From the IMG/VR virus record IMGVR_UViG_2778261500_000001: a stretch of DNA of 23,709 bases, one strand, 5' to 3'. The stretch's first letter is position 1, and every line of letters begins with the position of its first letter. Below, piece after piece: positions 6,038 through 23,361 of the stretch. A model generated the notes under the pieces. That model had not been told where the DNA came from and did not search any database. It was given only the letters and a program-made list of their open reading frames with translations. The position numbers and the translations under genes were made by a program. The DNA comes from a virus (Duplodnaviria > Heunggongvirae > Uroviricota > Caudoviricetes).

Positions 6038-6241
6038 TCAGTCCCATAGCTGGACGGTCTGCACGGTGGTGGTTGTCGGAATGTCCGGCAGCTCCACCTG
6101 CAGCCCGTGAGGTAAAAAGGGGCCATATTCGGCAAGCCCCGGATTTGCCTTCAGTACCTGCTCCGTGACACCCTGCGTGCGCCCGTAATGACGCCAGCAA
6201 AGCGCGTCCACCGTGTCATACTGATGCGCACGCACTTTCAT
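6038..6241 (-). CDS. X: Tail protein X
   Basis: 67 aa ORF between L and holin, the P2 gene X position and size. Confidence 0.65.
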   Translation of the reverse strand: MKVRAHQYDTVDALCWRHYGRTQGVTEQVLKANPGLAEYGPFLPHGLQVELPDIPTTTTVQTVQLWD

Positions 6242-6768
6242 CAGATAAGCTCCACTGTGCAGTGCGGCGCATCCTGTACCCGGCTGATGGCCCAGCGGGC
6301 GTCACGCCACAAATCACCGCTGGCTTCCGCCAGTTCCTCGCCCCGCTTCACACCAGACGCCGTGGCGTCATAGTCCTGGTAACGTTCGTTGAGCATGGCG
6401 CGTGCCCAGCAGTAAACCGCGTTGAAATAGTGCTGAATGCGCTCACTTTTGCCGTCCAGTTGTTCCGCCGGAACCTCTGCCAGCGAGGCATATCCCAGCA
6501 TCTGCTGGCGTCTGCGAAACTCATACAGTTCTGCGTTGACCTCCGAAATTGCCGACAGCGCAACCTGCTTTAAACGCGGCTGCGTCACCGTGCCGTCAGT
6601 GCGCATCACACTGCGAAACTCCGACAGGTCCACATCAGGCCAGAACGGCGTATTTCTGATGATTTCCGCCTGTTCCGGTGCCTGTTCTGGTGCAACAAAC
6701 TTCATGCTGCTTTCTCCTGAAATAGAGGGCGGTGGACGGAGTTTTGATGTGGCTGTGCCTTTCGCCAC
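6241..6768 (-). CDS. L: Head completion/stabilisation protein L
   Basis: 175 aa ORF following M in P2 order. Confidence 0.75.
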   Translation of the reverse strand: MAKGTATSKLRPPPSISGESSMKFVAPEQAPEQAEIIRNTPFWPDVDLSEFRSVMRTDGTVTQPRLKQVALSAISEVNAELYEFRRRQQMLGYASLAEVPAEQLDGKSERIQHYFNAVYCWARAMLNERYQDYDATASGVKRGEELAEASGDLWRDARWAISRVQDAPHCTVELI

Positions 6769-6800: not shown

Positions 6801-7451
6801 TCAGCGGCTGTCATTGCGCAGTCTGCGCTCCAGCTGCTGTTTGTCTTTTTTCACGCCACAGCGGGGATCGAGCTGCAACGCATGGTTGAGATGGTTAAGG
6901 GCGGAAGCCGGATTGCTTTCACTCAGGACAGCGCCAATCGCTTTATGCAGACGCGCCCGTGACTGGTCCGGCATATCCAGACCGTCTGTCAGCTCCAGCG
7001 TCTGCAGCAACAGATCGGCATCAAAGCCGGTGGCGGCAAGCATTGCGCTCTGCGCCGCGTCTGCCATTTCCTCTGCCAGCACGGTCTGCACATTGCGATT
7101 ACCCAGCGGCATCACCCAGCCATGACGCAGGGCGTGACGCCCGATCTCCAGCGCCCCGGCATAATCTCCGGCATCAATGCGCCACAGCATCACGTACATC
7201 AGCACGTCATCCTGTTGAGCGCCTCCGGCAGCAAGGACACCCTCCGCCCAGGCGGCGTACTTCGGCAGCAGCTCCACCTTGATTTCCGCTTTTTTGACCG
7301 TGGACTGAACGCCCTTGAGACGGCGGCGGTCTTCCGCCAGTTGCAGCAGCATCAGGTCATAGCCCGACGCGTGGCGAACGCTGCCGCCCTCGCGGGCGGC
7401 CTGTTCAGCCTGAACGCGCAGGCGATGCTGCCGTGCGGGACTCAGGCTCAT
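6801..7451 (-). CDS. M: Terminase small/endonuclease subunit M
   Basis: 216 aa; region DDVLMYVMLWRIDAGDYAGALEIGRHALRHG resembles P2 gpM as recalled; immediately follows N. Confidence 0.8.
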   Translation of the reverse strand: MSLSPARQHRLRVQAEQAAREGGSVRHASGYDLMLLQLAEDRRRLKGVQSTVKKAEIKVELLPKYAAWAEGVLAAGGAQQDDVLMYVMLWRIDAGDYAGALEIGRHALRHGWVMPLGNRNVQTVLAEEMADAAQSAMLAATGFDADLLLQTLELTDGLDMPDQSRARLHKAIGAVLSESNPASALNHLNHALQLDPRCGVKKDKQQLERRLRNDSR

Positions 7452-7454
7452 GAA

Positions 7455-8513
7455 TTACGCTCCGGTTTCTGCTGCTGCGGCGCTGAAGTCGCCAATCTGG
7501 ATGTTTTCCACCAGTGCGGCGCAGCGGTAGTCCTCAACCACATAGGCTTCGTTAACGGATTCAAAGTTTTCAATCCGGTCACGTTTCGGGTTGTCGATAA
7601 CTGAGCGGCGGCGGGTGTCTTCCTGCCAGTAGATGGACAGGTTATCCAGACGGGTGATCAGCAGTGCATTCGGCGGGAAGAACGGCGCACGCACGGCCTG
7701 CAGGCCACCCATGCGTTTCTGACTGATGATCATATCGGCAGCCAGTTTTTCACTGTTTTCCTGCTCTTTGTTGACCAGCGGGAAATACTTGTCAGACAGC
7801 AGTTCACGACCGCAAATCACCACCAGATCGTCATCGTCCTGGTAGACCACATCGATAAGCTCATTGACGGCATCCATCACCACGGCGTCCAGGTTGGCAT
7901 ATTCGCCACCTTTCCCGACTTTCACCGCACCCGGTGTGGTTTCACCGCCCGTGGTGGTGCTGCCCATGACGTGATCCGGTGCATCTTCACGGATTTTCTG
8001 CAGCCAGCCTTTGTTCACATCCTGCAGCAGCGGGTTTTCGCTACGGCTGGAGGTTTTCGCACGCTTCACGCCGTTAAAGCCGATCATGATGCGGTCCAGA
8101 GCCTGACGTTTCACGATGGCGTCACGGATGCGCACCTGGAAATCCTGAAACTTCGCCCACAGGTCCAGCTTCGCGTAGGTCAGCACCGTGTCAAAGTTGG
8201 TCTGCTCGCATTTATATTCCACATCGACCATCAGCGTCGGATCGACAGGTTCACGCTCTTTCGCGGTGGTGTCAGTGGTTCCGGCAATGGTGCTGCCAAC
8301 TCCCAGCCCCAGCAGCTGACCGGACTGCTCAGTCACTGGCGTGACGTTAATCAGCGTCAGGAAAGCGGCGGACTGCTGGATCTGGTCTTCCAGCGTCTGC
8401 TGCACAGACGGCTCCACGGTGAACTTGCTGGACAGTTCTTCAACTGCCACACCGTTCAGACGCGCCAGCTGCTGCAGGTAAGCGTTAAAAGCAAAGCGGG
8501 TATTCTTCTTCAT
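7455..8513 (-). CDS. N: Major capsid protein N
   Basis: 352 aa; long colinear similarity to P2 gpN from memory (FNAYL..., KFTVEPSVQQTL, KGGEYANLDAVVMDA, NKEQENSEKLAAD, VVEDY). Confidence 0.95.
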   Translation of the reverse strand: MKKNTRFAFNAYLQQLARLNGVAVEELSSKFTVEPSVQQTLEDQIQQSAAFLTLINVTPVTEQSGQLLGLGVGSTIAGTTDTTAKEREPVDPTLMVDVEYKCEQTNFDTVLTYAKLDLWAKFQDFQVRIRDAIVKRQALDRIMIGFNGVKRAKTSSRSENPLLQDVNKGWLQKIREDAPDHVMGSTTTGGETTPGAVKVGKGGEYANLDAVVMDAVNELIDVVYQDDDDLVVICGRELLSDKYFPLVNKEQENSEKLAADMIISQKRMGGLQAVRAPFFPPNALLITRLDNLSIYWQEDTRRRSVIDNPKRDRIENFESVNEAYVVEDYRCAALVENIQIGDFSAAAAETGA

Positions 8514-8529: not shown

Positions 8530-9363
8530 TCAGCAATTGGTCAGAGTGTCAGCGGGGGCGTTACCGCCTGTTGCACGCTGGCGGTAGTCCTGGCGACTGT
8601 CTTCATGACTCAGCTTGTCCACCAGTTCGTTAAAGGCGGTTTGCTGTGCCTGCAGGGCAGTCTCCAGCTCAGACAGGCGTTCTTCCTGCTCAGACAGGGA
8701 TTTTTCGGTGCGTGCGCTCAGGTTCTGCTGCTCAGTGGCGACCAGCTCCACGGCCTTATGCACATCAGAGAACCGGGCGTCATCGGACTGCTCTTTTTTG
8801 GTAAACAGCGCCGTGACGCGGGCAAACAGGGACGGTTTGTCGTCCTGGATTTCTTCCAGTTCGATCACCGTTTCCTCTGCAGCGGTAAAGAGATTGGCAG
8901 GATTCTGCTTGCGGTTTGCCAGCGGGTTATGGGCTGCACTGGCGCTGAATGTCAGCATTTCCGTACCCAGACTGGCAGGGTCATCAGTGGCAGCCAGGCC
9001 GACCAGATAGGCTTTGCCCGTATCAGCGAACTTCGGGCTGACTTCCATAGAGGTGAATAATTTCTGGCCTTTTTTCACCAGTTCCACCAGGGACTCCGTT
9101 GGCTCAACGTCGGCATACAGCGCCATCTTGCCTGCCAGCGGACCTTCCGTGATTTCTTCAGCAAACAGCGCCGTCACCTTGCCGTAGCGGTTAAAGGTGC
9201 TGTCCGGCAGATAAGACTTGATGTGCTCAAGGTTAATCAGCGCGGTATACACCGCCGGGTTGTAGCTGGCTGCCATCTGTTCCAGCCATTCACGCTGGAT
9301 TTCGCGTCCGTCGGTGGTGGCACCTTCCACCCCGATGCGAAAACGCTTTGCTTTCACTGTCAT
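8530..9363 (-). CDS. O: Capsid scaffolding protein O
   Basis: 277 aa acidic coiled-coil-rich ORF immediately upstream of N and divergent from P, as in P2. Confidence 0.85.
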   Translation of the reverse strand: MTVKAKRFRIGVEGATTDGREIQREWLEQMAASYNPAVYTALINLEHIKSYLPDSTFNRYGKVTALFAEEITEGPLAGKMALYADVEPTESLVELVKKGQKLFTSMEVSPKFADTGKAYLVGLAATDDPASLGTEMLTFSASAAHNPLANRKQNPANLFTAAEETVIELEEIQDDKPSLFARVTALFTKKEQSDDARFSDVHKAVELVATEQQNLSARTEKSLSEQEERLSELETALQAQQTAFNELVDKLSHEDSRQDYRQRATGGNAPADTLTNC

Positions 9364-9505: not shown

Positions 9506-11272
9506 ATGAACACCACACTGACACCCGCAGATCTCGATCCCCGTCGGCAGGCCATGCTGCTGTACTTTCAGGGATACCGCGTAGCCCGCATTGCTGAAAT
9601 GCTGGGCGAGAAAGTTGCAACCGTTCACAGCTGGAAAAAACGCGACAAGTGGGGTGACTATGGGCCGCTGGATCAGATGCAGCTCACCACCGCCGCACGC
9701 TACTGCCAGCTCATTATGAAGGAGCACAAAGAAGGGAAAGATTTCAAAGAAATTGACCTGCTGGCGCGCCAGTCGGAGCGCCACGCGCGGATCGGCAAGT
9801 TTAACAATGGCGGCAACGAAGCCGACTTAAACCCTAACGTCGCCAACCGCAACAAAGGCCCGCGCCGTCAGCCGGAAAAGAATGTTTTCACCGATGAACA
9901 GATAGAGAAACTGGAAGAAATCTTCCATTCCTCCATGTTCAACTACCAGCGCCACTGGTGGGAAGCCGGAAAAACCAACCGCATCCGCAACCTGCTGAAG
10001 TCACGCCAGATCGGCGCGACCTTTTACTTTGCCCGTGAAGCCCTGATTGACGCCCTGCTTACCGGACGTAACCAGATTTTCCTTTCTGCCAGTAAGGCAC
10101 AGGCTCACGTCTTTAAGCAGTACATCATCGACTTCGCCAAAGAAGTCGAGGTGGAGCTGAAAGGCGATCCGATGGTGCTTCCTAACGGGGCCACGCTTTA
10201 CTTCCTCGGCACCAATGCCCGCACGGCGCAGAGTTACCACGGCAACCTGTATCTGGATGAATATTTCTGGATACCGAAATTCCAGGAGTTGCGCAAAGTG
10301 GCTTCCGGTATGGCTATTCACAAGAAATGGCGACAAACCTATTTTTCCACGCCATCCAGCCTGACCCACAGTGCTTATCCGTTCTGGTCCGGTGCGCTGT
10401 TCAACCGTGGACGCAACAAAGCTGACAAGGTGGACATCGACCTGTCCCACAGCAATCTGGCCCCCGGCCTACTGTGCGCAGACGGGCAATACCGCCAGAT
10501 AGTCACCGTGGAAGATGCGGTGCGCGGCGGCTGTAACCTGTTCGACCTCGACCAGCTGCGCATGGAGTACAGCCCGGACGAATACCAGAACCTGCTGATG
10601 TGCGAGTTCGTGGACGATCTCGCGTCCGTGTTCCCGCTCAGCGAACTGCAGGCGTGCATGGTGGACAGCTGGGAAGTCTGGACCGACTTTCATGCACTGG
10701 CCCTGCGCCCGTTTGGCTGGCGCGAAGTGTGGATCGGTTATGACCCGGCAAAAGGTACGCAGAACGGCGACAGTGCCGGATGCGTGGTGGTGGCTCCGCC
10801 AGCCGTGCCGGGTGGTAAGTTCCGCATTCTTGAGCGTCACCAGTGGCGCGGGATGGACTTCCGCGCCCAGGCTGACGCCATCAAAAAACTGACCGAACAG
10901 TATAACGTGACCTATATCGGTATCGACTCGACCGGCGTCGGTCACGGGGTTTACGAGAACGTGAAAGCGTTTTTTCCTGCCGTCAGGGAGTTTGTCTATA
11001 ACCCCAACGTTAAAAACGCCCTGGTACTCAAGGCCTACGACATTATCAGCCACCGCCGTCTGGAGTTTGACGCCGGGCACACCGACATTGCGCAGTCATT
11101 TATGGCAATCCGTCGCGCTACCACTGCCAGTGGCAACCGCCCGACCTATGAAGCCAGCCGCAGCGAAGAAGCCAGCCATGCCGATCTGGCCTGGGCAACA
11201 ATGCACGCACTGTTTAACGAACCGCTGCAGGGCGAGTCCGCCAATACCAGCAATATTGTGGAGATTTTTTGA
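9506..11272 (+). CDS. P: Terminase large (ATPase) subunit P
   Basis: 588 aa, P2 gpP size and position; divergent from O and followed by Q with a 4-nt overlap. Confidence 0.9.
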   Translation: MNTTLTPADLDPRRQAMLLYFQGYRVARIAEMLGEKVATVHSWKKRDKWGDYGPLDQMQLTTAARYCQLIMKEHKEGKDFKEIDLLARQSERHARIGKFNNGGNEADLNPNVANRNKGPRRQPEKNVFTDEQIEKLEEIFHSSMFNYQRHWWEAGKTNRIRNLLKSRQIGATFYFAREALIDALLTGRNQIFLSASKAQAHVFKQYIIDFAKEVEVELKGDPMVLPNGATLYFLGTNARTAQSYHGNLYLDEYFWIPKFQELRKVASGMAIHKKWRQTYFSTPSSLTHSAYPFWSGALFNRGRNKADKVDIDLSHSNLAPGLLCADGQYRQIVTVEDAVRGGCNLFDLDQLRMEYSPDEYQNLLMCEFVDDLASVFPLSELQACMVDSWEVWTDFHALALRPFGWREVWIGYDPAKGTQNGDSAGCVVVAPPAVPGGKFRILERHQWRGMDFRAQADAIKKLTEQYNVTYIGIDSTGVGHGVYENVKAFFPAVREFVYNPNVKNALVLKAYDIISHRRLEFDAGHTDIAQSFMAIRRATTASGNRPTYEASRSEEASHADLAWATMHALFNEPLQGESANTSNIVEIF

Positions 11273-12309
11273 TGGGAAAGAGTAAGAAGAACCGCGCTGC
11301 GTCGACGAAACAGATCCAGCATAAAAGCCAGACTTCAGCCGAAGCATTCAGCTTCGGTGATCCCGTTCCTGTTCTGGACCGCCGCGAACTGCTGGACTAT
11401 GTGGAATGCGTACAGATGGATCGTTGGTACGAGCCGCCTGTGAGTTTCGACGGACTGGCGCGAACCTTCCGCGCCGCCGTGCATCACAGCTCACCGATTG
11501 CAGTGAAGTGCAACATTCTGACCAGCACCTACATCCCTCACCCGCTGCTCAGCCAGCAGGCTTTTTCGCGTTTTGTACAGGACTATCTGGTTTTTGGTAA
11601 CGCCTACCTGGAGAAACGCACGAACCGCTTCGGTGAAGTTATCGCCCTTGAGCCTGCACTGGCAAAATACACCCGACGCGGGTTAGACCTTGATACCTAC
11701 TGGTTTGTGCAATACGGCATGACTACGCAGCCGTATCAGTTCACGAAAGGCAACATTTTTCATCTGATGGAACCGGACATCAACCAGGAGATCTACGGCC
11801 TGCCTGGTTATCTTTCTGCCATTCCGTCAGCTCTGCTCAACGAGTCCGCCACGCTGTTCCGCCGCAAGTATTACATTAACGGCAGTCATGCAGGCTTCAT
11901 CATGTACATGACCGATGCAGCGCAGAACCAGGAGGATGTGAACAACCTCCGCAATGCGATGAAAAGCGCCAAAGGTCCTGGTAACTTCCGTAACCTGTTT
12001 ATGTACTCGCCTAACGGTAAAAAGGACGGGCTTCAGATTATCCCGTTGTCAGAAGTGGCGGCGAAGGATGAGTTCCTGAATATCAAGAACGTGAGCCGGG
12101 ACGACATGATGGCGGCGCATCGTGTGCCGCCACAAATGATGGGGATAATGCCTAATAATGTCGGGGGGTTTGGGGATGTGGAGAAGGCCAGCCGTGTATT
12201 CGTCCGAAATGAGCTAATGCCACTACAAAAGCGATTACAGGAGATGAATGATTGGCTTGGCAAGGAGGCGATACAGTTTAATACCTACTCGCTAGATATA
12301 GTCCCATAA
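11269..12309 (+). CDS. Q: Portal protein Q
   Basis: 346 aa ORF downstream of P, P2 gpQ size and position. Confidence 0.9.
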   Translation: MMGKSKKNRAASTKQIQHKSQTSAEAFSFGDPVPVLDRRELLDYVECVQMDRWYEPPVSFDGLARTFRAAVHHSSPIAVKCNILTSTYIPHPLLSQQAFSRFVQDYLVFGNAYLEKRTNRFGEVIALEPALAKYTRRGLDLDTYWFVQYGMTTQPYQFTKGNIFHLMEPDINQEIYGLPGYLSAIPSALLNESATLFRRKYYINGSHAGFIMYMTDAAQNQEDVNNLRNAMKSAKGPGNFRNLFMYSPNGKKDGLQIIPLSEVAAKDEFLNIKNVSRDDMMAAHRVPPQMMGIMPNNVGGFGDVEKASRVFVRNELMPLQKRLQEMNDWLGKEAIQFNTYSLDIVP

Positions 12310-12313
12310 TAAG

Positions 12314-12337
12314 AAAAGCCACCGTTTGGTGGCTTTT
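12314..12337. terminator. Bidirectional intrinsic terminator between convergent Q and the accessory operon
   Basis: Perfect 10-bp stem AAAAGCCACC / GGTGGCTTTT with a 4-nt loop, flanked by a T-run on both strands; lies between the Q stop (12309) and the stop of the 246-aa gene (12344). Confidence 0.65.
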
Positions 12338-12343
12338 CTTCAT

Positions 12344-13084
12344 TTACTCAATAGGTTCAAACTCATCCTGAGGAATCAGCGTCGATTGACAGGCTTGGCT
12401 TAGTACTCCTGATAATTTACATAATAACCGATAGTTATGAGGAGCATCATCGCTAATCTTTTCGACCGTTAAAGTGATTGATTTTGGATCATCCAATAAC
12501 ATCTTCTTGATATCATTACTTAAATACCTAGGGCAGTAACCAACGATTTCAGCTGGTTTATCTGCACGAACGACAACAGCATCCCCATCGTATTCATTTT
12601 GAAGATCCAAGCAAAGACGCAAAATTTGCCCCGGTTTCAATTCAGATACACGAGCATTAGCTAAGCTATTTAAGTAACCAAGTCCATGTAAGAAGAAAAA
12701 ATGCTCAAAGTTACCATCAGAATCAACATCAATTTTTTTGAAAATCTGCAGCTGATCAGTGCTTCGTAAGCCTCCCGAGCGAGCAAGAATATCGATAGGA
12801 TTTACCTTATCTTCTTCAAATCCAAGCCATTTAATGAAACTCGGATACTCTGGACGTCTCGGTGATAAAAGGCGATTTTTAAAAAGAGGAAACAATTCTT
12901 CCGAAACATAAGTTTCACGAACATCACTCATGCCGCTAAACTTTGTAAATTTAGTAGATTTAAGAGCACCTTTGGTATACCTGAAAACATACCCCGATTT
13001 GCGCTCTTGCAAGTTACCAACAACATGCCAGTCTCTGGTATCTGGTGCCTGCCATGCGACGTAAACGGAGTTTGTATTAGTCAT
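12344..13084 (-). CDS. Partner protein with HipA-N-terminal-like domain fused to a HIRAN-like domain
   Basis: 246 aa. N-terminal part (VYVAWQ...VVGNL...YVFRY; LFPLFKNRLLSPRRPE; IDILARSGGLRS) resembles the HipA N-terminal subdomain as I recall it. C-terminal part (LKPGQILRLCLDLQNEYDGDAVVVRADKPAEIVGYCPRYLSNDI) fits the HIRAN pattern. Start overlaps the stop of the upstream kinase gene. AT-rich. Confidence 0.6.
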   Translation of the reverse strand: MTNTNSVYVAWQAPDTRDWHVVGNLQERKSGYVFRYTKGALKSTKFTKFSGMSDVRETYVSEELFPLFKNRLLSPRRPEYPSFIKWLGFEEDKVNPIDILARSGGLRSTDQLQIFKKIDVDSDGNFEHFFFLHGLGYLNSLANARVSELKPGQILRLCLDLQNEYDGDAVVVRADKPAEIVGYCPRYLSNDIKKMLLDDPKSITLTVEKISDDAPHNYRLLCKLSGVLSQACQSTLIPQDEFEPIE

Positions 13085-13995
13085 TCTAGTAACCTTCTGC
13101 GATTTTCCATTACCATTAACGTTGCAAATCTACGTGCACTGTCGGATATACACGATGAAGGCACTTGGTTAAACACATCTGTAATGGAATCTTCTGTTAA
13201 AACGCTCAACTTACCTAACCAATGGTCGCGAGCGGCAACTCTCCCTTCAACTGCATGTTGAAATGCTTCAACGGTCAGCAAGGGCTTTTTATCAGTTTTT
13301 GCTTTGAATAGCTCAGAGCGAGCTTTTCTTACAAAACATGGGATTTGTCGATTTTTATCTTTAGTATTAAGCCGTTCGTTACGCTCATCATCTAACATCT
13401 CCCTTCCTAAACTAGCGGCATGATCGTATGTTGGACACAAAAACTGCTCACCAGTTTCATTGTTAAGCATGATCGCCCAATTTTCATGATGGCGATCTTG
13501 ATTACTCACAAGTGCATCGAGCATCAAAAATCCACAAAATACATCTGCTGCATTTAGCCCGGTTAGATCATATACACTCGGAGGAGGCTTGATAGATTCC
13601 CTATCTAAACAACCCAATACCCTTGTGACAGTGTGTTCTCTGACCCTTACCGGCTTTTCCCCGGCTTGTAAAGGCCCTGGATAATCGAATGTCGAACTGT
13701 GAAGCACTTCATTTCCCATTACCATCCGGAAACCAGATGGAATGATATTCTGAGTCACCACACCGAATCGACCATTGTATCGCGCCAAATCATAGCTAGC
13801 ATGTGGAATGTTAAGCAAATGACATAACTCAGCAGCACACTTTTCAGACCAATGCTCGCCAGTACCTGGCCTAGAGTACTTAAACAACTGCAAATTTACA
13901 GTGTCATCGGAGAAATAGAACCAAAACTTCTCTTTGGTTCCTAACTGTTCAAGATCGTTAGCTACGGGGCTAAGCTCTACCAATTGGTATGGCAT
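13081..13995 (-). CDS. HipA-like Ser/Thr protein kinase, core kinase domain only
   Basis: 304 aa. Motifs seen: FLMLDALVSNQDRHHENWAIM (compare HipA catalytic loop with Asp) and LCPTYDHAASLG (compare HipA PAYD Mg-binding Asp), plus a glycine-lysine motif LGTKEKF near the N-terminus. Putative catalytic Asp167 and Asp191 by my count. No HipA N-terminal domain in this ORF. Confidence 0.75.
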   Translation of the reverse strand: MPYQLVELSPVANDLEQLGTKEKFWFYFSDDTVNLQLFKYSRPGTGEHWSEKCAAELCHLLNIPHASYDLARYNGRFGVVTQNIIPSGFRMVMGNEVLHSSTFDYPGPLQAGEKPVRVREHTVTRVLGCLDRESIKPPPSVYDLTGLNAADVFCGFLMLDALVSNQDRHHENWAIMLNNETGEQFLCPTYDHAASLGREMLDDERNERLNTKDKNRQIPCFVRKARSELFKAKTDKKPLLTVEAFQHAVEGRVAARDHWLGKLSVLTEDSITDVFNQVPSSCISDSARRFATLMVMENRRRLLE

Positions 13996-14147
13996 CTGAC
14001 ATCCCTGTTTAGCGGATTATGAATAAGTTAGGTTCCATTTTATCCAAACATTGTCAAATACTCTAAGATTTATTAGATGATAGAGCGATACTGTATGCAT
14101 GTCCAGCAATCAAATCAATATATAACTCTTATATGACTTAGCGCGCG

Positions 14148-14166
14148 CTCGTATCCCCGCCACGCC
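14148..14166 (-). other. Candidate cos cohesive-end sequence
   Basis: Minus-strand reading GGCGTGGCGGGGATACGAG resembles the P2/186 19-nt cohesive ends as I remember them (GGCGAGGCGGGGAAAGCAC / GGCGTGGCGGGGAAAGCAT). Orientation and position relative to Q fit; exact ends unverified. Confidence 0.45.
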
Positions 14167-14210
14167 TGCCCGCTTTATGTAGTGGTTTTCATGCAGGTGC
14201 ATGATCTACG

Positions 14211-14235
14211 CAAAAGCCCGCCAGTTCTGGCGGGC
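14211..14235 (-). terminator. Hairpin gcccgccag-ttc-tggcgggc followed by a T-run on the minus strand
   Basis: Perfect 9-bp GC-rich inverted repeat seen directly; on the minus strand it is followed by TTTTG. Could be a terminator or part of the cos-flanking structure. Confidence 0.4.
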
Positions 14236-14508
14236 CTTAGCGAAAACGATCCTCAAACGATCATGCAATCTCATGCAGCATAGACATGCACAGACGAGTA
14301 AAGCGAATCGGACCTTACGCAAGGTGAACTCCTCAGCGGGCATAATCAGTATGTCGGAAGATCTCTAAAAATAAATAATTCGGTTAACAGGTATGCTTAC
14401 AAAAGCATATATTTGATTAAAAATCATGTAAGGGGGAGGATCTCAAACTGAATCGCCACGGGTTTTACAAATTTCGATAGTCTCTCTAACGTTTCGGCTG
14501 AGGTCAAA

Positions 14509-14934
14509 ATGAAAAGCTTTTACGTATTAATTTTAATTCTGGTTGCAAGCTTTGTTAGCGTCCCAGTTCAGGCGGTAACAGCTAAAAACTATGAGAAAGG
14601 AACTAAAGCTCAACAGAAATCAATATCTTACCTTTCATGTGCATTCTATGGCAGTAGCACACAATTAGATCCTAGCTACACGGAGCAAGTACCTACAGCC
14701 GATATCAAGATATTACAGAAAGCAGCTTACCACGCTTACAACGATGCGCTCTCATACTTTGGCTATGAGGAACCAGATCACGAACAACGCATAATTGATT
14801 ATGCTGAATTTGTGGCGTCGCAAGAAGCTGTGTTATGGGATAAGCCGGGAATGAATGGAAAGCAGGTAACACTAATTGCTCGTTCTCTCTACAATGAGAG
14901 TAACTGTAACTTGTTACTGGACTCAATTAAGTAG
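14509..14934 (+). CDS. Small secreted protein of unknown function (accessory/moron gene)
   Basis: 141 aa with a classic Sec signal peptide (MKSFYVLILILVASFVSVPVQA, AxA-type cleavage site); GAGG Shine-Dalgarno 8 nt upstream; AT-rich; only plus-strand gene in this island. Confidence 0.5.
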   Translation: MKSFYVLILILVASFVSVPVQAVTAKNYEKGTKAQQKSISYLSCAFYGSSTQLDPSYTEQVPTADIKILQKAAYHAYNDALSYFGYEEPDHEQRIIDYAEFVASQEAVLWDKPGMNGKQVTLIARSLYNESNCNLLLDSIK

Positions 14935-15093
14935 GAAAAAGATGGTATTTTGCCCGTAGTTTCAACCTTAATCTCCGAACCTGTCGCAGAACGGGCGTTC
15001 ACTCATCAAATAAACGCCACACCTAACGCCTCACTGTACTCGTTGTTCAACCTTGCTGACGCCAGAACCAAGTTCAGACGCCAGCAACTTTTC

Positions 15094-15327
15094 TTAATGC
15101 AGCCAGCTGTCGTCTTCCCACACCTTCTGCATAATCTTCATCACTTGTTTTCTTTCTTCGTCCAGTTGCAGTCCGGTCAGTTCCACACCGTTAGAGCTAC
15201 CTTTGCGGATGCGAATTACCATTTTGGGATACAGGGGGCGCAGATTGCGGTAAAGCTCGGATTCAAGGGCGTCCAGGGTAGACTGGCTAATCTTCTGCTC
15301 TTTATCGATCATTATTTCAATGCGCAT
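15094..15327 (-). CDS. DinI-family protein (SOS-associated, Tum/DinI-like)
   Basis: ORF 15094..15399; from internal start MRIEIMIDKEQ... the product is about 78 aa and resembles E. coli DinI end-to-end as recalled, including the C-terminal acidic W motif (WEDDSW). Confidence 0.7.
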   Translation of the reverse strand: MRIEIMIDKEQKISQSTLDALESELYRNLRPLYPKMVIRIRKGSSNGVELTGLQLDEERKQVMKIMQKVWEDDSWLH

Positions 15328-15337
15328 AAAGGTCACC

Positions 15338-15526
15338 TCAGCTGATGACATCCATTGAGCGGTTGTATTCGTGGGTTCTGATTTTTGCCATGAGTTCATC
15401 AGTCAATTCAGAAACCCACTGCAGAGCCAGCCCCTTCTCTTCATCACTACACTCACTAGCCGCTACAAGCTTAAGAAAAAAATCAATGCGCTGGAGCTTC
15501 AAAGACTCCAAAAAATAGTCCTGCAT
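15338..15526 (-). CDS. Small hypothetical protein immediately downstream of a LexA box (possible Tum-like antirepressor component)
   Basis: 62 aa ORF with strong SD (GGAGG) and a LexA box about 45 bp upstream; functional call is positional only. Confidence 0.35.
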   Translation of the reverse strand: MQDYFLESLKLQRIDFFLKLVAASECSDEEKGLALQWVSELTDELMAKIRTHEYNRSMDVIS

Positions 15527-15678: not shown

Positions 15679-18051
15679 TTAATACAGGTTCCGCCACTTA
15701 TCATCTTCCTGCAAACGCTGGTTCCGATAGAAGATACGCAGGCCTGCTCCTGACGGAATACTGCCGCCGCGAAGGAGTAAATCGACCTCTTTCTCGCTGC
15801 CATCAAATCCTCTGGACTTCAGTTCATAGACGAGCTGCTGTCGCTGATGGTCTGTAATTCGCTGTTTGTAGTCTTTACGCCGTTTCGGTTTCACCAGGCG
15901 TAACCTTGCAGCCAGTTCCCGGCGCTCTTTTTTGCTCATACTGTGCAGGTATTCGTGCAACTCCTTGTCATCCATGCGGGTAATGTCCGTTCTGGTATCC
16001 CCATCAGCTGATTTGTCTTTCCCTTGTTGGTTCAAATTTTCAGCAAGGGGACAGTTATTGCCACGAGTCCAAGGGGCGCAAGCGCCCTGGTCGGCTGCCG
16101 CCTCCTGAACATCAACGGCCTTACGAACCATTTTCCACTTCACGGCATGAGTGCAGATCTTGCCCTCTGCAATAGGTGACCAGATGCCATAAATACGAAT
16201 GCCGTGATCGCCATAGGCGGTCGGCTCTTCGTTGATTTCATAAGCGGTTCTGATGAGGTGATATTTGCGGGGAACCAGTACGCCGCCCTGCTTCATGATG
16301 TAGGTGGCAAAACAACCAGCATCAGCAGCAGCCAGGATGGCATCAAGGCGCGGGTTATCCAGTACCGGCGCACCTGCTTTTTTGTCCCCCTGTTGCCTTG
16401 CCGCCTGACCAGCCAGCAATCGCAGTTCACGGTAAGCCTGACGCCCCGGAATGCCAAAGAAGCGGAATTGCTGAACACGATGCAGAGACGCCCAGGCATT
16501 AACGTATTCAGCATTATCACGCAGGGATTTCCCCGTTTCCTTGCTGATCTCGCCAGCCAGACCACGCCCGTCAATGTTCTTACTGATGTATTTCGCGATG
16601 TAGCTTGTTGGCGTACCTTTGCGCGGGTTAATCAACTCAGACTTAAAGCGCGGCCCAGTGTTATTGCCCAGTTCCTCGCGGTCTTCACGGATGGCAAACT
16701 TACGCAGTAATGCAGTGATGGCGCGGCGGTCTTTTTTGCGCATAAAACACAACAGGTGCCAGTGAACTGTACCGTCATGATGCGGCTCAGCCACCCGCAC
16801 GCCATACCACCGCAATCCGGCTTTGTGCATCGCCTTACGAAATGCAGCAAACATGCCGACCAGATAATCACTGCTTTGTCTTACCGTCGCATTTGTCCAA
16901 GTTGGGTTGGGCCTGCCATTATTTAGCGTGGAATGGAAACGTGACGGACAGGTGATGGTGTAGAAAACGGCGCAGTCACCGCGCATTTCCGCGATAAGCT
17001 CCAGGCCTTTAACACAGGCCATCATCTCATTGCGGCGATGCGCAGGGTTGCTGCTGCTGGCGTTTACCACATCCTCCATGTCCAGCGTGTCGCCGTCTTC
17101 GTTCACCAGTTCATGAGAACGAAAAAACTCCAGCGACTTACGGCGCTGCTCACGTTTATGCATCACGGCTTCATAGCTGACATAGGGAGATGCTTTTTTG
17201 CTGACCAGGCAGACAGCACGCAACTGCTCTTCCCGCCATTCGCAACGCATCTTCCATAATTTCCGGTACCACCAGTCAGCGCACAACATACGCGCCAGCG
17301 AACCCGGAATGAGTTCATAGGGCACGGGTTTACGGCGGTTTCTTTTCCGGCGGAGTTGCTCAAACGCAGGCGGGATGACATCCAGACGCAGGGTTTCCGC
17401 TGCCACCTTTTCCCATGTCTTGCGGATTTCTTCTGGCTTAACGTCATCGGTGACATACAAATCGCCACAAGCTGCATCAAGGCACATGCTCATATGCGCA
17501 GCTACCAGGGTGGACAGGCGTTTCACCTGATCCTGACTCATTTCAGGCAGGATCAGCAGGCCGTCCAGCCCTTCATGGCTTGCCATAAAGCGAAAAGAAG
17601 TGGATAGCTGACAGTCGCGTACATGCTCCAGCCGTTCCAGACATGGCTTAATCGTCTCACGCAAATAGCGGGAATAAGCCTTTGGCCTGCCCAGGCTGCT
17701 GAAGTATTCAATACGTTGCATCAGTGGCTTGCTGATATGGGAAGGCTGGGCATTAACGTCCGCCAGAATGACCATATCTGGATTAAAACGCTGCTGCTCA
17801 TGCGCCAGCTTTGCCCGACTAATGAGCTTATCCTGCTCCATTTCGCGCTGGACAGGATCACGGGATTCATTAAAGAAATAACGCTCCCAGACCTGATCAC
17901 TCAGTGCCTCGCGGCGCAGCTGTTCCTGCTCGTTATCGGCAGCGTACAGAGCGATCAGGTTTGAAAGCGCAGAAACTGAAGATTGCTCTTCCGTCTCTAC
18001 GTAAGGATTGATTGCTTTTTTCTCAGCATTCCAGGAATAGCTGTAGTTCAT
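15679..18051 (-). CDS. A: Replication initiation protein A (rolling-circle endonuclease)
   Basis: ORF 15679..18102 (807 aa); probable start at MNYSYSW (18051), overlapping the upstream stop as TAATG. Contains a two-tyrosine motif [12 protein letters not shown] consistent with P2 gpA active-site tyrosines. Confidence 0.85.
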
Positions 18052-18881
18052 TACGCAATCTCCAGTTCGAGCTGTGAAGGCTGCAAACCATTCGACAGCC
18101 AATCAGAAACTGAAGGTGGGCGAACAGCTTCAATTGCACCTTTTAAAATTGCGCAACGGTTTTTCAGAATGACAGCTTTCAGCTCCTTTTCCGTCAGATT
18201 GCGCGAATACTCAGCCTCCTGAATAGCCCGCGTCAGCTCAGGATATTTGCTATTAAATTTGGGGACATTGCAGGCAAGATTTGTACTGTCGGCAGTCGCC
18301 AGTGGGTAATTTCCCAACACACGACCGTCAAGCATGCGCAAACCATGAACAGCTGTTTTGAAATTGTGTCGGCAATAAATTGCTTCAAAAGCGTCCTGCA
18401 TACGACGATGCCAGTGCGCAGTTCTGATAGCCGCATATTCACCAGACGATCCAAAGCAGACACGAGGCCATTCACGACATAGCTCGATAAGCCGATCGAT
18501 TGACTCGTGCAGATGCCAGACGGGAGTTGCCTTCCCGTAGAACATTTTCGGAACTTCGTTTATCAGGGCATCATTGTCACGTTCACCTCCGTCCACAACA
18601 TCAGGAATGACAAAAAAAGCGACCTTAGGATGGTGGTAATAGTTCAGGAGCCATTTATAAAAATCACTCCAGTTAATTTTTAGCCCACGCACCCATGCAG
18701 AAAATGCGCCGTTATCAATGCCGACGACCTGAGCGTGCTGAATGGACGCCGCAATCTGATCTGGTCGTACATAGGAGACGAAAGCGCCAGCTCCGCTCAC
18801 CGCAATACGATGAACGTCGCCAGCACTTCCCCAGACAGGCGTCCCATGGAAATGATGAATTCCGTGGTGCATTTCTTTCAC
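18051..18881 (-). CDS. Hypothetical protein, possibly TGT/DpdA-like TIM-barrel (uncertain)
   Basis: 276 aa; GTG start overlaps the Dam stop (GTGA), stop overlaps the A start. Motifs [32 protein letters not shown] are weakly reminiscent of tRNA-guanine transglycosylase-like enzymes; unverified. Confidence 0.45.
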
Positions 18882-19732
18882 ACTTGCACCCCGAAAATAA
18901 CAGTAGAGTCACGTCCCCTACTAAAATCGGCACTAAACCAATTAGCAGATTTAGTGGCAATCATCTCTGTTGCAAATTTTCCCTCCCCCGCTGCAACGCC
19001 GATGCTGCGTTTCGCCCTGATGTAGTGGTGAGTGAAATTACGATAAAGGGACCGGGTCAAAGACGTGTTACTGTTAGAAACAATGACCGGATGTCCTTCT
19101 GATGACCGATGTTCAAGAATGGATGCCAGGTGATACTGATCATCTTCAGTGAAACCATCAGTGTGATAGCCGGAAAACGTACCGTCATAAGGCGGATCGC
19201 AATACACCACATCCCCCACCTTCAACATCGCCAGCGTTTCATCAAAGCTGGCGCAGATAAACGTTGCCCGCTGGGCTTTCTCTGCAAATGCGCGAATTTC
19301 TTTTTCAGGGAAATACGGATTTTTATAATTACCGTAGGGAATGTTGAAATGCCCGCTCTTGTTATAGCGACATAAACCACGGTAACCGTGACGATTGAGA
19401 TACAGGAAATATACCGCTTTCATGAAATCAGTAATTTCAGTGGAGTAATTAAACTCCTGCCTTATGTTGTAATAAGCCACCTCCCTGTTTGCTTCCTCAA
19501 ATAAAGCTCTGGCACGAGATATAAACGCCTCACAATCAGCAGCAACCTTTTTATAGAGGTTGATTAAATCAGGATTAATATCCGCAACAAGATAGCTGGG
19601 GTAATCCGTCTCCATCATCACTGCACAGGAACCCGCGAAAGGTTCAACCAGTCGCGGGCCAGCAGGAAGATGCTTTTTCAGTTCGGACATTATGGCGGTT
19701 TTATTTCCTGCCCATTTCAGGATGGTGCTCAT
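18878..19732 (-). CDS. dam: DNA adenine methyltransferase (Dam family)
   Basis: ORF 18878..19792; likely start [11 protein letters not shown] (ATG at 19732, ATGA overlap with the upstream gene). Motifs KWAGNK, EPFAGS and DPPY are the Dam/D12-class N6-adenine MTase signatures. Confidence 0.85.
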
Positions 19733-19956
19733 ACAGCACCTCCGTTGTAATGTTTGCCTTTCAGCTCTGCGATTTCCTGACAGGTAATGCAAAGCTGCAC
19801 ACCCGGAATGGCACGGCGGCGTGCTGGCGGAATTGGCGCTTCACACTCAACGCAAAGCACGCGGGACACGCCCGGCGTTTTGGCACGGGCAGCACGGATA
19901 TGGCGTTGGCGTTCTTCTTCAACGCGCTGCTGTACGAGATCCATTGCATCAGCCAT
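19729..19956 (-). CDS. TraR/DksA-family C4 zinc-finger protein
   Basis: 75 aa with CVEC-X17-CITC spacing typical of TraR/DksA-type zinc fingers, not the Ogr/B late activator pattern. Confidence 0.7.
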   Translation of the reverse strand: MADAMDLVQQRVEEERQRHIRAARAKTPGVSRVLCVECEAPIPPARRRAIPGVQLCITCQEIAELKGKHYNGGAV

Positions 19957-20769: not shown

Positions 20770-21279
20770 TCACAGCAAACCGAATGAAGCACCGAGGCCA
20801 GTCACGGTATCAACTGCACTCGCCATCGCAGGATTAGCCTGTAAACGGGCCTGCAATGAAACAGCGGCCAGCGCCATCAGTCGTGTTACAGAGTTAATGC
20901 TGCTGATAGCATCACGACGACCTGCACTGGTTTTTACATCGCCAGATACCGCACCTGCAGCAACACGCCCGATCTCTGCGGTTGCACTCATGACATAATG
21001 CGGCAGTTTCTCTTTTGCCACCTCATTAATCGGTACACATGGCAGGCAGTGAATCTGTGCCAGAAAGCCATCTACCAGCGTTGAATCTTCAGTCAGATCG
21101 GTAAGCAACCAGATTTCTGGTGCGGTTAATAAATGAGGTTGAGCTGGGTTCAGCTTGTTCCGCAGAATCTGTACATTCATGCCTGCACGTTCTGCCAGTC
21201 GCACCAGGTTGTGGCGCAGTGCGAATGCACGACAGGCTTCGTCAAAATGTGGATGTTTGGAAACTTGATAATCAAACAT
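20770..21279 (-). CDS. cII: CII-like transcriptional activator (186 CII family)
   Basis: 169 aa; sequence closely resembles phage 186 CII as I remember it ([11 protein letters not shown]...[17 protein letters not shown]...GASFGLL); second gene of the lytic operon. Confidence 0.75.
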
Positions 21280-21533: not shown

Positions 21534-21584
21534 AAGGCAACATCTCCTGTTTAAGTGTGTTTAACATTGACGAGTAGTTGTAAG

Positions 21585-21658
21585 TCACATTTTGAAATCA
21601 ATGCGACTATAAGATCACAAATTGAAATCGTCAACCATAAAGTTCACAAGGTGAAATC
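21585..21658. repeat. Three 15-bp direct repeats TCACA-N3-TGAAATC at about 30-bp spacing (putative operators)
   Basis: tcacattttgaaatc (21585-21599), tcacaaattgaaatc (21615-21629), tcacaaggtgaaatc (21644-21658), seen directly in the apl/cI intergenic region, overlapping the candidate pR. Confidence 0.55.
21606..21634 (-). promoter_or_regulatory. Candidate lytic promoter pR (sigma70-type) directed towards apl
   Basis: Minus strand reads TTGACG - 17 nt - TATAGT (-35 at 21629-21634, -10 at 21606-21611); apl start lies about 65 bp downstream. Confidence 0.6.
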
Positions 21659-21659
21659 G

Positions 21660-22226
21660 ATGGATTTTAGTCAAGGTGGAAAGAAAGCTATCGAAAGGAT
21701 GGTTGAAGCCTATGGGTTCACTACAAGACAGGCGTTATGTGAACAACTAGGCATATCAAAAAGCAGTCTTGCTACACGCTACATGAGAGATTCATTCCCT
21801 TCTGATTGGGTTATTCAGTGCGCGCTCGAAACAGGAGTAAACATAAAGTGGCTGGTAACAGGCTTACCTCCTAAACATGAATATTTAACGTCTGACATCA
21901 TCAATATTCAAAAAATAAAATTGATTGATGGAGTGCTATTGGATGCAGGAACACTAATGTTTGACAAAGTGTTCATTCCTGATGGTTTATCATCACCATC
22001 TGTGATATCAAACGGGAATAACTCTTATTTTATTGAGAGGGATTTCACAGATGTAGTTGATGGTGATTGGTTAATCTCCATTGATGGAAAGCATTCTATA
22101 AAACAAGTTATTAGAATTCCTGATAATAAAGTTAAGATTAACTATGGGAATATCATTGTTGATATGAACATTAATGACCTTGTATTCATCGGCAAAGTTA
22201 TAGCAGAATTCAAGATAAGAGGCTAA
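21660..22226 (+). CDS. cI: CI-like immunity repressor (186 CI family)
   Basis: ORF 21555..22226 begins with GTG inside the intergenic region; likely true start is ATG at 21660 (MDFSQGG...), preceded by AGGTGA. N-terminal region AYGF...QLGISKSSLATRYMRDSFPSDWVIQCALETGVNIKWLVTG resembles the 186 CI HTH domain as recalled. Confidence 0.75.
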   Translation: MDFSQGGKKAIERMVEAYGFTTRQALCEQLGISKSSLATRYMRDSFPSDWVIQCALETGVNIKWLVTGLPPKHEYLTSDIINIQKIKLIDGVLLDAGTLMFDKVFIPDGLSSPSVISNGNNSYFIERDFTDVVDGDWLISIDGKHSIKQVIRIPDNKVKINYGNIIVDMNINDLVFIGKVIAEFKIRG

Positions 22227-22227
22227 T

Positions 22228-23361
22228 ATGAATATTACTCGATTAAAACTGAAAAATTGGAAAAACTTCAGGAATATTGATGTTCCTCTTCATGACCGTG
22301 TTTACATCATAGGGCCAAATGCTGTAGGTAAATCAAACTTCCTTGATGTCTTTCGCTTTATGAGTGATATTTGTAGAGATGGTGGTGGTTTACAAAAAGC
22401 GGTCAATGATAGAGGTGGCATAACAAAACTCCGTTGTCTTCAAGCGAGAAATGATACCGAAGTAGGTATAACCATATATTTTGAGGAAGACGATAACGAG
22501 TGGATTTATGAACTTATTTTCAAGGCATCTGGCCGAGGGAAACAGTTAATTCACGTCACTAGTGAAAATGTATATAAAAATGGTGAGCATATATTGAGCC
22601 GCCCCAATGCTCATGATCATGCTGATGCTGTTCAGTTGACTCAAACACATCTTGAGCAAATTTTAGCAAATCAAAGTTTTAGAGTGATTTCAGATTTCTT
22701 CACATCTGTTACATACTTGCATATAGTTCCACAGTTGCTCAAATTCGCCAAAGAAATTGGGGTTAATAAAATAGATGATGACCCATTTGGACAAGGGTTT
22801 CTTGACCGATTAGCAAATACTCAAACACGAACCAGAGATGCCTGGCTAAAAAAAATACAAGCAGGGCTATCTATTGCTGTTCCGCAGTTTAAAGAGTTAC
22901 GCTTTGAAAGAGATGAATCAGGGCAACCACACTTAGAAGCAAGGTACGAGCACTGGAGGCCAAATGCTGGATGGCAAAAAGAAGAGCAGTTTTCAGATGG
23001 AACATTACGTTTAATCGGTTTGATGTGGTCACTTCTTGAGAAAAGACAGCTACTTTTAATGGAAGAACCTGAATTATCTTTGAACAGTGAAATTGTGAAA
23101 TTTATACCTGAAATCATTGAAAACACGCTTAAAGGTGCTCGAAATCAAAAGCAAATCATCATTAGCACTCACAGTCCATCGTTGCTAAGTAATAATATCG
23201 ATGGCAATAACATTATTCTATTTACAGCATCTGAAAACGGTACTACAGCGAGAACACCTACAGATGATGAATTGGATGCAATGAGAGTCGGTTTCTCTGC
23301 TGCTGAAATCATGTTGCCTCATACGACGCCTGCCAATATAAGTAAAATTGCAGAGATCTAG
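22228..23361 (+). CDS. ABC-type (AAA_21/OLD-like) ATPase, putative defence-system component
   Basis: 377 aa. Walker A GPNAVGKSN, signature-like FSDGTLR, Walker B-like LLLMEEPE, H-loop ISTHSP, all seen directly. ATG is 1 nt after the cI stop with an AAGAGG SD. Confidence 0.8.
   Translation: MNITRLKLKNWKNFRNIDVPLHDRVYIIGPNAVGKSNFLDVFRFMSDICRDGGGLQKAVNDRGGITKLRCLQARNDTEVGITIYFEEDDNEWIYELIFKASGRGKQLIHVTSENVYKNGEHILSRPNAHDHADAVQLTQTHLEQILANQSFRVISDFFTSVTYLHIVPQLLKFAKEIGVNKIDDDPFGQGFLDRLANTQTRTRDAWLKKIQAGLSIAVPQFKELRFERDESGQPHLEARYEHWRPNAGWQKEEQFSDGTLRLIGLMWSLLEKRQLLLMEEPELSLNSEIVKFIPEIIENTLKGARNQKQIIISTHSPSLLSNNIDGNNIILFTASENGTTARTPTDDELDAMRVGFSAAEIMLPHTTPANISKIAEI

Follow-up and report, generated by a model that had tools for sequence, protein, structure and literature searches.

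The 152-bp conserved block at 14141-14292, read on the minus strand of the window (the whole 23,709-nucleotide stretch of viral DNA analysed here), is very probably the cos site of a Fels-2-type E. coli prophage of the P2 family (Peduoviridae), as judged by sequence comparison with its relatives. The element is effectively identical to the cos of Fels-2 and SEN8. Both the cos site and the cargo hotspot that surrounds it have been described already, and the finding is a correct and ordinary one. The limits of the block, a set of GCATG boxes that appears to be family-wide and a terminator-like hairpin that seems specific to the lineage would be modest additions, reached by comparison.

The gene order of the window is that of a P2-family phage, reversed relative to the P2 map. 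Minus-strand genes encode gpL (head completion, 6241-6768), the gpM homologue (small terminase, 6801-7451; Pfam Phage_term_smal 2e-40, phrog_74), the capsid protein gpN (7455-8513) and the scaffold gpO (8530-9363). The homologues of gpP (large terminase, 9506-11272; Pfam Terminase_6N, Terminase_6C and Terminase_5) and gpQ (portal, 11269-12309; Pfam Phage_portal 1e-19) lie on the plus strand. On the other side of the block are DinI (15094-15399), gpA (15679-18102), a Dam methylase (18878-19792) and CII (20770-21279), all on the minus strand, and a 186-type CI (21555-22226) on the plus strand. The block is located between the portal gene Q and the gpA/DinI region, a position found throughout the P2 family, and the full-length genes for the terminase subunits expected to recognise cos (gpM) and to cut it (gpP) are within a few kb. 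The host is E. coli; the complete genome of strain LR-71-1 (NZ_AP027599) matches positions 12300-15500 at 99.5%.

The predicted cohesive end and the probable cos core

At 14148-14166 the plus strand reads CTCGTATCCCCGCCACGCC and its reverse complement, the minus strand, reads GGCGTGGCGGGGATACGAG, the predicted 19-nt 5' cohesive end (nicking site, cosN). For P2, 186, PSP3, EtG, SEN8 and P4 we joined the right end of the record to its left end and aligned the resulting junctions with the minus strand of the window. Five of these records, all except that of P4, label bases 1-19 as the cohesive end (in SEN8 as 'putative cos site'), and the 19-mer of the window falls at the exact position of the annotated ends. 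An earlier note on this DNA had proposed a candidate cos here from a likeness of the minus strand at 14166-14148 to the P2 and 186 ends. Alignment to the termini of both phages bears this out, with 15/19 bases shared with the annotated end of 186 and 14/19 with that of P2. The other identities are 19/19 for Fels-2 and for SEN8, 15/19 for PSP3 and for EtG, and 14/19 for P4. The cohesive end is GC-rich and homologous to the family form GGCG(A/T)GGCGGGGA..., and its 13-base head, GGCGWGGCGGGGA, occurs a single time in the 23.7-kb window, compared with 0.09 matches in shuffles when one mismatch is allowed.

Among 120 sampled P2-family viral contigs, GGCGTGGCGGGGATACGAG was the most frequent 19-mer, present in 42. 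The contigs that carry it have a Q 75-99% identical to the Q of the window, while for contigs with other 19-mers this value is 52-82%, mostly ~62%. Contig L094 combines a Fels-2-like gpA with a Q and a 19-mer of another type; the 19-mer, and with it the cos type, thus follows Q and the head module.

The terminase would make staggered nicks separated by 19 bp, following 14167 (minus strand) and 14147 (plus strand), and 5' overhangs of GGCGTGGCGGGGATACGAG would result. The SEN8 and EtG records both terminate at the base aligned to window 14167, directly before the predicted overhang. The SEN8 genome paper states that cos is ggcgtggcggggatacgag, the same 19-mer, identified during annotation rather than by end-mapping (PMC5427200), and this annotation-derived statement is all that a literature search for experimental end-mapping of the 19-mer turned up. 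Where exactly the nicks fall is therefore an extrapolation from P2 and 186; that the block as a whole is the cos of this phage we hold with high confidence.

The 19-mer is embedded in a longer stretch of homology. The 55-bp cos core common to P2 and P4, a concept that PMC5694545 and PMC3931495 credit to Ziermann and Calendar 1990, extends in the P2/P4 junction alignment from offset -29 to +25 relative to the first base of the 19-mer and corresponds to 14141-14195 on the minus strand. Ungapped, the core of the window is identical to that of Fels-2 at 55/55 positions, SEN8 at 54/55, EtG at 46/55, PSP3 at 45/55, 186 at 44/55, P4 at 43/55 and P2 at 42/55. In the whole block, ~126 bp of right arm (gpA side) precede the 19-mer, and 7 bp (CGCGCGC) of left arm (Q side) follow it. 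Over its 152 bp the ungapped identities are 141/152 for Fels-2, 137/152 for SEN8, 104/152 for EtG, 93/152 for PSP3, 97/152 for 186, 96/152 for P4 and 79/152 for P2, and the matches found in phages span the same block at 89-97% identity. With the core and ~100 further right-arm bases conserved, what had been put forward as a resemblance is homology.

The block is present in 1246 of 5426 complete E. coli genomes at a coverage of at least 80%, mostly unannotated. The record of Escherichia phage Cartapus ends within the block, at the equivalent of 14199, a position that does not match the inferred cos cut.

GCATG boxes and a hairpin inside the block

The block contains five GCATG/CATGC motifs, compared with 0.28 expected at the window-wide rate (Poisson P ~1e-5). 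Box 1 (14285-14289, minus strand) is conserved in Fels-2-type loci. Boxes 2 (14272-14276) and 3 (14262-14266), both on the minus strand and both reading GCATGA, are 10 bp apart; box 2 is at least 80% conserved in 114 unique P2-family cos regions and occurs in P2, P4 and 186. Box 4 (14199-14203) is inverted, lying on the plus strand as part of the inverted repeat I3 (TGCATGATC / GATCATGCA), and is at least 80% conserved family-wide. Box 5 (14190-14194, minus strand) forms the first bases of the 55-bp core, and its TGCAT is at least 95% conserved in the 114 unique regions. Four of the five box positions are conserved at 80% or above across these regions, which represent every 19-mer type. The conserved boxes are present in P2, in 186 and in the otherwise unrelated satellite P4, with intervening sequence that varies freely.

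Box 5 is separated from box 3 by 72 bp and from box 2 by 82 bp, the latter also being the spacing of direct repeat D2. With boxes 2 and 3 themselves 10 bp apart, the three would face roughly one side of the helix. The terminase, with gpM responsible for recognition and gpP for cutting, would bind the right-arm part of the block, where the five boxes are its likely contacts. Judging by conservation and spacing, we give even chances to the assignment of the boxes as putative gpM contacts.

A second repeat in the right arm, D3, comprises two direct copies of GATCGTTT (14244-14262, minus strand), each with a GATC (Dam) site, and is conserved in Fels-2-type loci. Cutting at the P1 pac site is methylation-dependent. 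Blocks of the Fels-2 type hold 2-4 GATC each and these phages encode a Dam methylase, and by analogy with P1 pac, methylation by Dam could make cutting at cos methylation-dependent, which we consider unlikely. In the GGCGTGGCGGGGATAGCAT cos lineage, Dam-positive contigs have 0-1 GATC and several Dam-negative contigs have 3. The association fails in that lineage and so looks like shared ancestry rather than function, and a functional link was rejected.

Between the distal and the proximal GCATG boxes, the block contains a terminator-shaped element on the minus strand (14212-14235), made up of a GC-rich hairpin and a TTTT run (14215-14212). The earlier note had described a perfect hairpin at 14211-14235. 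A perfect stem of 9 GC-rich base pairs is indeed present within 14216-14235 (14216-14224 / 14227-14235, GCCCGCCAG..CTGGCGGGC); the wider span includes, in addition, the neighbouring A-run, read as the T-run on the minus strand. The hairpin with its flanks folds at -26.5 kcal/mol (z = -4.4), and 0 of 200 shuffles did as well. The same note had offered a terminator or a part of the terminase recognition region as its role, and the evidence leans slightly towards an intrinsic terminator embedded in cos without settling the choice. The hairpin and T-run, once in RNA, would terminate transcription arriving from the gpA/DinI side and would keep it from crossing cos into the left arm.

We compared this interpretation with one in which the hairpin acts at the level of DNA as a part of the packaging signal, whether as a palindromic binding site for a protein, as a bend or as a spacer between the boxes, and does not terminate transcription. 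The strand asymmetry of the element argues against the DNA-level role. A TTT follows the stem on the minus strand in 30/31 unique Fels-2-type variants, the opposite strand has no T-run, and one-sided changes in the stem (91% of stem cells are paired) yield 9 G-U wobbles on the T-run strand compared with 4 on the other. At this position contig L030 carries a hairpin whose sequence is unrelated, a point in favour of structure over sequence. Covariation is weak, with 2 pairs changing on both sides and 28-44 of 500 shuffles doing as well, in a stem with little variation. The T-run is just 4 T long, and a consensus terminator scan did not list the hairpin. That scan did list a plus-strand 'terminator' at 14170-14185, a 5-bp stem within the cos core that we read as chance.

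The distribution of the element bears on both interpretations. A strong hairpin is found at this offset in 25/29 unique Fels-2-type sequences, 6/14 of the 186 type and 6/30 of the P2 type. In favour of a DNA-level role, many cos regions of the 186 type and of other types, all without a T-run, have a palindrome resembling GCCAG-NN-CTGGC at about -62 to -50, and the corresponding place in P4 is occupied by another GC palindrome (CCGCGCC...GGCGCGG), again with no T-run; both hint at a role in DNA or in spacing. The hairpin is also flanked by the inverted 9-mers TGCATGATC and GATCATGCA, and it is retained whatever the upstream cargo, even where this cargo is transcribed away from cos, as it is here. 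Its constancy is explained under either interpretation by its location between the boxes, where insertions cannot separate it from cos. Against a DNA-level role, P2 and most P2-type cos regions (24/30 unique sequences) are hairpin-less. Since P4, with its palindrome, is packaged by the terminase of the hairpin-less P2, the element is no general requirement of the family.

The neighbouring genes also bear on the choice. In favour of a terminator, DinI stops 206 nt short of cos, on the strand of the hairpin, in relatives that have no right cargo, and in P2, where there is no hairpin, the neighbouring gene old is transcribed away from cos. Against a terminator, DinI in the window is 930 nt upstream on the strand of the hairpin, with an opposite-strand ORF between. 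Collectively, we judge a mainly DNA-level role to be rather unlikely, and the probability not taken by it or by an intrinsic terminator falls to the hairpin serving in both capacities or in neither.

Limits of the block and the cargo on either side

Over 42 Fels-2-type loci, conservation starts abruptly at about -125 and stops at about +25, and both flanks are unalignable. A BLAST comparison with contig L098, which has neither cargo, delimited the block as 14141-14292. Three pieces of the window aligned with this contig, namely the gpA/DinI side (16401-15023), the block itself (14292-14141) and Q with the beginning of P (12257-10992), which identifies 14293-15022 and ~12297-14140 as insertions. 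The Q-side limit of the left insertion (~12297) was taken from another contig, L055, and in place of 14293-15022 contig L098 has ~6 nt. Both edges of the block are exact cargo junctions, and these junctions leave the 152 bp intact in all relatives, which lends indirect support to a block that would suffice in cis for packaging or transduction by a cognate helper.

The block accounts for part of the 513-bp gap at 13996-14508, which separates two divergent genes whose start codons are at 13995 (minus strand) and 14509 (plus strand). The gap had been described as an AT-rich, non-coding region of about 500 bp. We take it as non-coding because a small-ORF search of the gap found no ORF >55 aa, and an Rfam scan of 13900-14600 with E up to 1 gave zero matches. 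The description as AT-rich holds for the flanking leaders, with 32% GC at 13996-14140 and 40% at 14293-14508. It does not hold for the cos block, which at 55% GC resembles the phage backbone (53-55%), and the average over the gap is 42%. The AT-rich region is therefore a composite whose AT-richness stems from the two cargo leaders. Outside the block the gap is not cos; it is promoter/leader DNA of two independently acquired cargo cassettes that abut the block.

The left cargo, between cos and Q (12344-13995, minus strand), is hipIN-like and pairs a small kinase resembling HipA (13081-13995) with a HIRAN-domain protein (12344-13084). PADLOC matches these to its candidate system PDC-M03 (PDC-M03A 1e-121, PDC-M03B 3e-93), so that the hotspot cargo here includes a candidate anti-phage system, PDC-M03A/B. 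The Pfam matches are HIRAN at 1e-13 and HipA_C at 4e-4, the latter under Pfam's cut-off, and the hipIN modules of PMC8262856 have the same order of genes and the same domains. In E. coli genomes the left leader (13996-14140, minus strand) goes together with the kinase operon, and it has a promoter-like TGGACA-17-TATCAT (14105-14077, scoring 10/12 in a promoter scan) upstream of the kinase gene.

On the right, the cargo span 14293-15022 holds a 141-aa ORF (14509-14934, plus strand) that matches phrog_7437 (unknown function) at 4e-99 and has no match in Pfam or PADLOC. Judged by eye, its N-terminus (MKSFYVLILILVASFVSVPVQA) looks like a signal peptide. The right leader (14293-14508, plus strand), absent from L098, has a promoter-like TTAACA-18-TATATT (14384-14413) upstream of this ORF. 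Each of the two promoter-like sites faces its own cargo gene; the scan overall found fewer sites than in shuffles, and we treat both as weak leads only. Matches in E. coli genomes break at ~14137 and at ~14290-14305, so that left and right cargo assort independently around the block.

The kinase operon had been expected to lie between cos and Q, where P2 has almost no spacer, and this proved correct; the spacer is 1838 nt here and 167 nt, including the tQ terminator, in P2. For the Fels-2-type lineage a long spacer is normal and not unusual. Fels-2, SEN8 and most Fels-2-type contigs have 0.5-3.4 kb between cos and Q, with a range over the Fels-2-type contigs of 158 to 3381 nt for cos-Q and 206 to 2580 nt for cos-DinI. 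The gene content of the gpA-gpQ interval varies among related phages, and L098 provides an empty-site relative. P2-like phages are described as acquiring foreign genes in the stretch from cosL to Q (PMC5694545, which credits this to Dodd and Egan 1996 and Nakayama 1999), and the whole cos-proximal gpA-gpQ interval is a defence hotspot in Rousset et al. 2022 (PMC9122126) and also in a 2026 NAR study (PMC13586616).

The position of cos sets what this prophage would package. With cos located here, both cargo cassettes are within the predicted packaged genome and would travel with the phage. At this single locus the cos block appears as a fixed hinge between two independently exchanged cargo slots, the left one bounded by Q, as has been described before for P2-like phages and for P4 satellites. 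The anatomy of the block could help in designing minimal cos cassettes for transducing particles of the Fels-2 type. Jointly, the cargo insertions may be viewed as a natural deletion map, according to which a Fels-2-type cos would need only 7 bp on the left and ~126 bp on the right; the phased array of five boxes, conserved even in P4, would be the long-sought gpM sites; and the embedded terminator would shield cos. We advance this combined proposal tentatively and would put it somewhat short of even chances.

The block might instead be a relic cos, belonging to a defective prophage and now neither cut nor packaged, in which case the cargo would in practice be outside the packaged genome. Many E. 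coli P2-like prophages are cryptic, which favours this possibility, and the window includes no integrase and does not reach the other end of the prophage; the ORF that follows CI encodes an AAA ATPase and not int. The block itself shows no decay, however, as the consensus base is present in the window at all 105/105 columns that are at least 90% conserved. The genes for gpP, gpQ, gpM, gpN, gpO, gpL, gpA, CI and CII are full-length ORFs with strong family matches, and the same arrangement recurs in L027 and L093, both viral contigs, and at 99.5% in a complete E. coli genome. We therefore regard a relic as improbable. That the likeness to P2 and 186 arose by chance, in a GC-rich 19-mer within unrelated intergenic DNA, as might be suspected from just 14 bases shared with P2 and 15 with 186, has next to no probability and is refuted by the single occurrence of the 13-mer, the canonical genomic position, the junction alignments, the 152-bp matches at 89-97% in dozens of phages and the ungapped 55-bp core identities with P2, P4 and 186.

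Comparison with known cos systems

The closest counterparts are the cos sites of Fels-2 (NC_010463) and SEN8 (NC_047753), genus Felsduovirus, which share with the window the 19-mer, the GCATG boxes and the hairpin followed by a T-run. Both phages also bear cargo between cos and Q, a 1.7-kb gene for a 565-aa hypothetical protein in Fels-2 and a hypothetical protein with an HNH endonuclease in SEN8. Their cargo differs from that of the window on both sides, and their host is Salmonella whereas that of the window is E. coli. The central loop bases of the hairpin are TT in Fels-2 and AA in the window, on the same strand.

In 186, PSP3 and EtG (genus Eganvirus) the cohesive end begins with the same 13 bases as in the window, the core agrees at 44-46/55 positions and the GCATG boxes are found at the same offsets. 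The place of the hairpin is taken by a shorter GCCAG-NN-CTGGC palindrome, which in 186 is not accompanied by a T-run. Four of the last six bases of the 186 19-mer differ from those of the window. The 186 homology runs on into the left arm (TGCGCGCCAGAGGTGG...) and Q follows after ~180 nt, whereas the homology of the window stops 7 bp past the 19-mer.

P2 and P4 have in common with the window a 19-nt GC-rich 5' cohesive end, a core matching at 42-43/55 positions and the TGCAT boxes of the right arm, and their cos likewise adjoins a cargo or defence hotspot (PMC9122126). P2 differs in that its right arm has no hairpin, its cos and Q are 167 nt apart, its cargo (old, tin) is on the right side only and its 19-mer is different at five positions. 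The cos of lambda, with cosN and a cosB containing R sites and an IHF site, similarly combines a nicking site with short, one-sided repeats that position the terminase. This is an architectural analogy alone, as lambda has 12-nt ends and no sequence homology to the cos of the window, and the P2-family terminase, in contrast to that of lambda, acts on circular monomers.

Cargo on both sides of cos

The arrangement of the window, in which the cos block lies between a left cargo on the side towards Q (12344-13995, minus strand) and a right cargo on the DinI side (14293-15022), also occurs in the IMG/VR contigs L027 and L093 and in E. coli LR-71-1 (NZ_AP027599, 4594848-4598048), with 98-100% protein identity to the window. 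Another relative, L065, carries the kinase pair of the left cargo and lacks the 141-aa ORF of the right cargo.

The right cargo is a 730-bp insertion between DinI and cos that is missing from relative L098. Its 141-aa ORF (14509-14934, plus strand) matches phrog_7437, a family of unknown function (4e-99), and has a promoter-like site of its own. Judged by eye from the sequence, its N-terminal stretch MKSFYVLILILVASFVSVPVQA resembles a signal peptide. A 131-aa ORF antisense to DinI (14950-15345, plus strand), with a weak PD-(D/E)xK match (E = 0.0019), is probably no real gene.

Variation and GATC sites at cos

Two relatives differ at cos itself. The contig L094 (cos at ~10231 of the oriented locus) is an apparent recombinant: compared with the window, gpA is 83% and DinI 65% identical on the Fels-2-like side, and on the head side the portal is just 63% identical and the 19-mer, the predicted cohesive end, reads GGCGTGGCGGGGATAGCAT. 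This mosaic fits an exchange at or beside cos. The contig L030 lacks the usual GC-rich hairpin (14216-14224 / 14227-14235 in the window). In its place, at offsets ~-70 to -45 from cos, stands another hairpin, CGGCAC-AGTGG-GTGCCG, which is unrelated in sequence and has no T-run. A 21-nt inverted repeat (14000-14020 / 14375-14395, 81% complementary) encloses the cos block together with part of each cargo leader, and may be due to chance.

The gene at 18878-19792 (minus strand) codes for a D12-class Dam methylase, and the cos block of the phage (14141-14292) contains three GATC sites; Fels-2-type cos blocks hold 2-4, against ~0.6 expected. Because this Dam/GATC association breaks down in another cos lineage, it probably reflects shared ancestry.

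Candidate defence genes

Two nucleotides past the stop codon of the repressor gene CI begins a 377-aa AAA_21/AAA_15 ATPase of the AbiEii/OLD-like ATPase family (22228-23361, plus strand; 2e-34). This position, where an integrase might be expected directly after CI, is possibly another defence cargo slot.

The left cargo is a hipIN-like pair, a kinase operon in which a small HipA-family kinase is followed by a partner that carries a HIRAN domain at its C-terminus. It is predicted to be a toxin-antitoxin or abortive-infection module; the pair matches the PADLOC candidate system PDC-M03A/B (1e-121 for PDC-M03A and 3e-93 for PDC-M03B).
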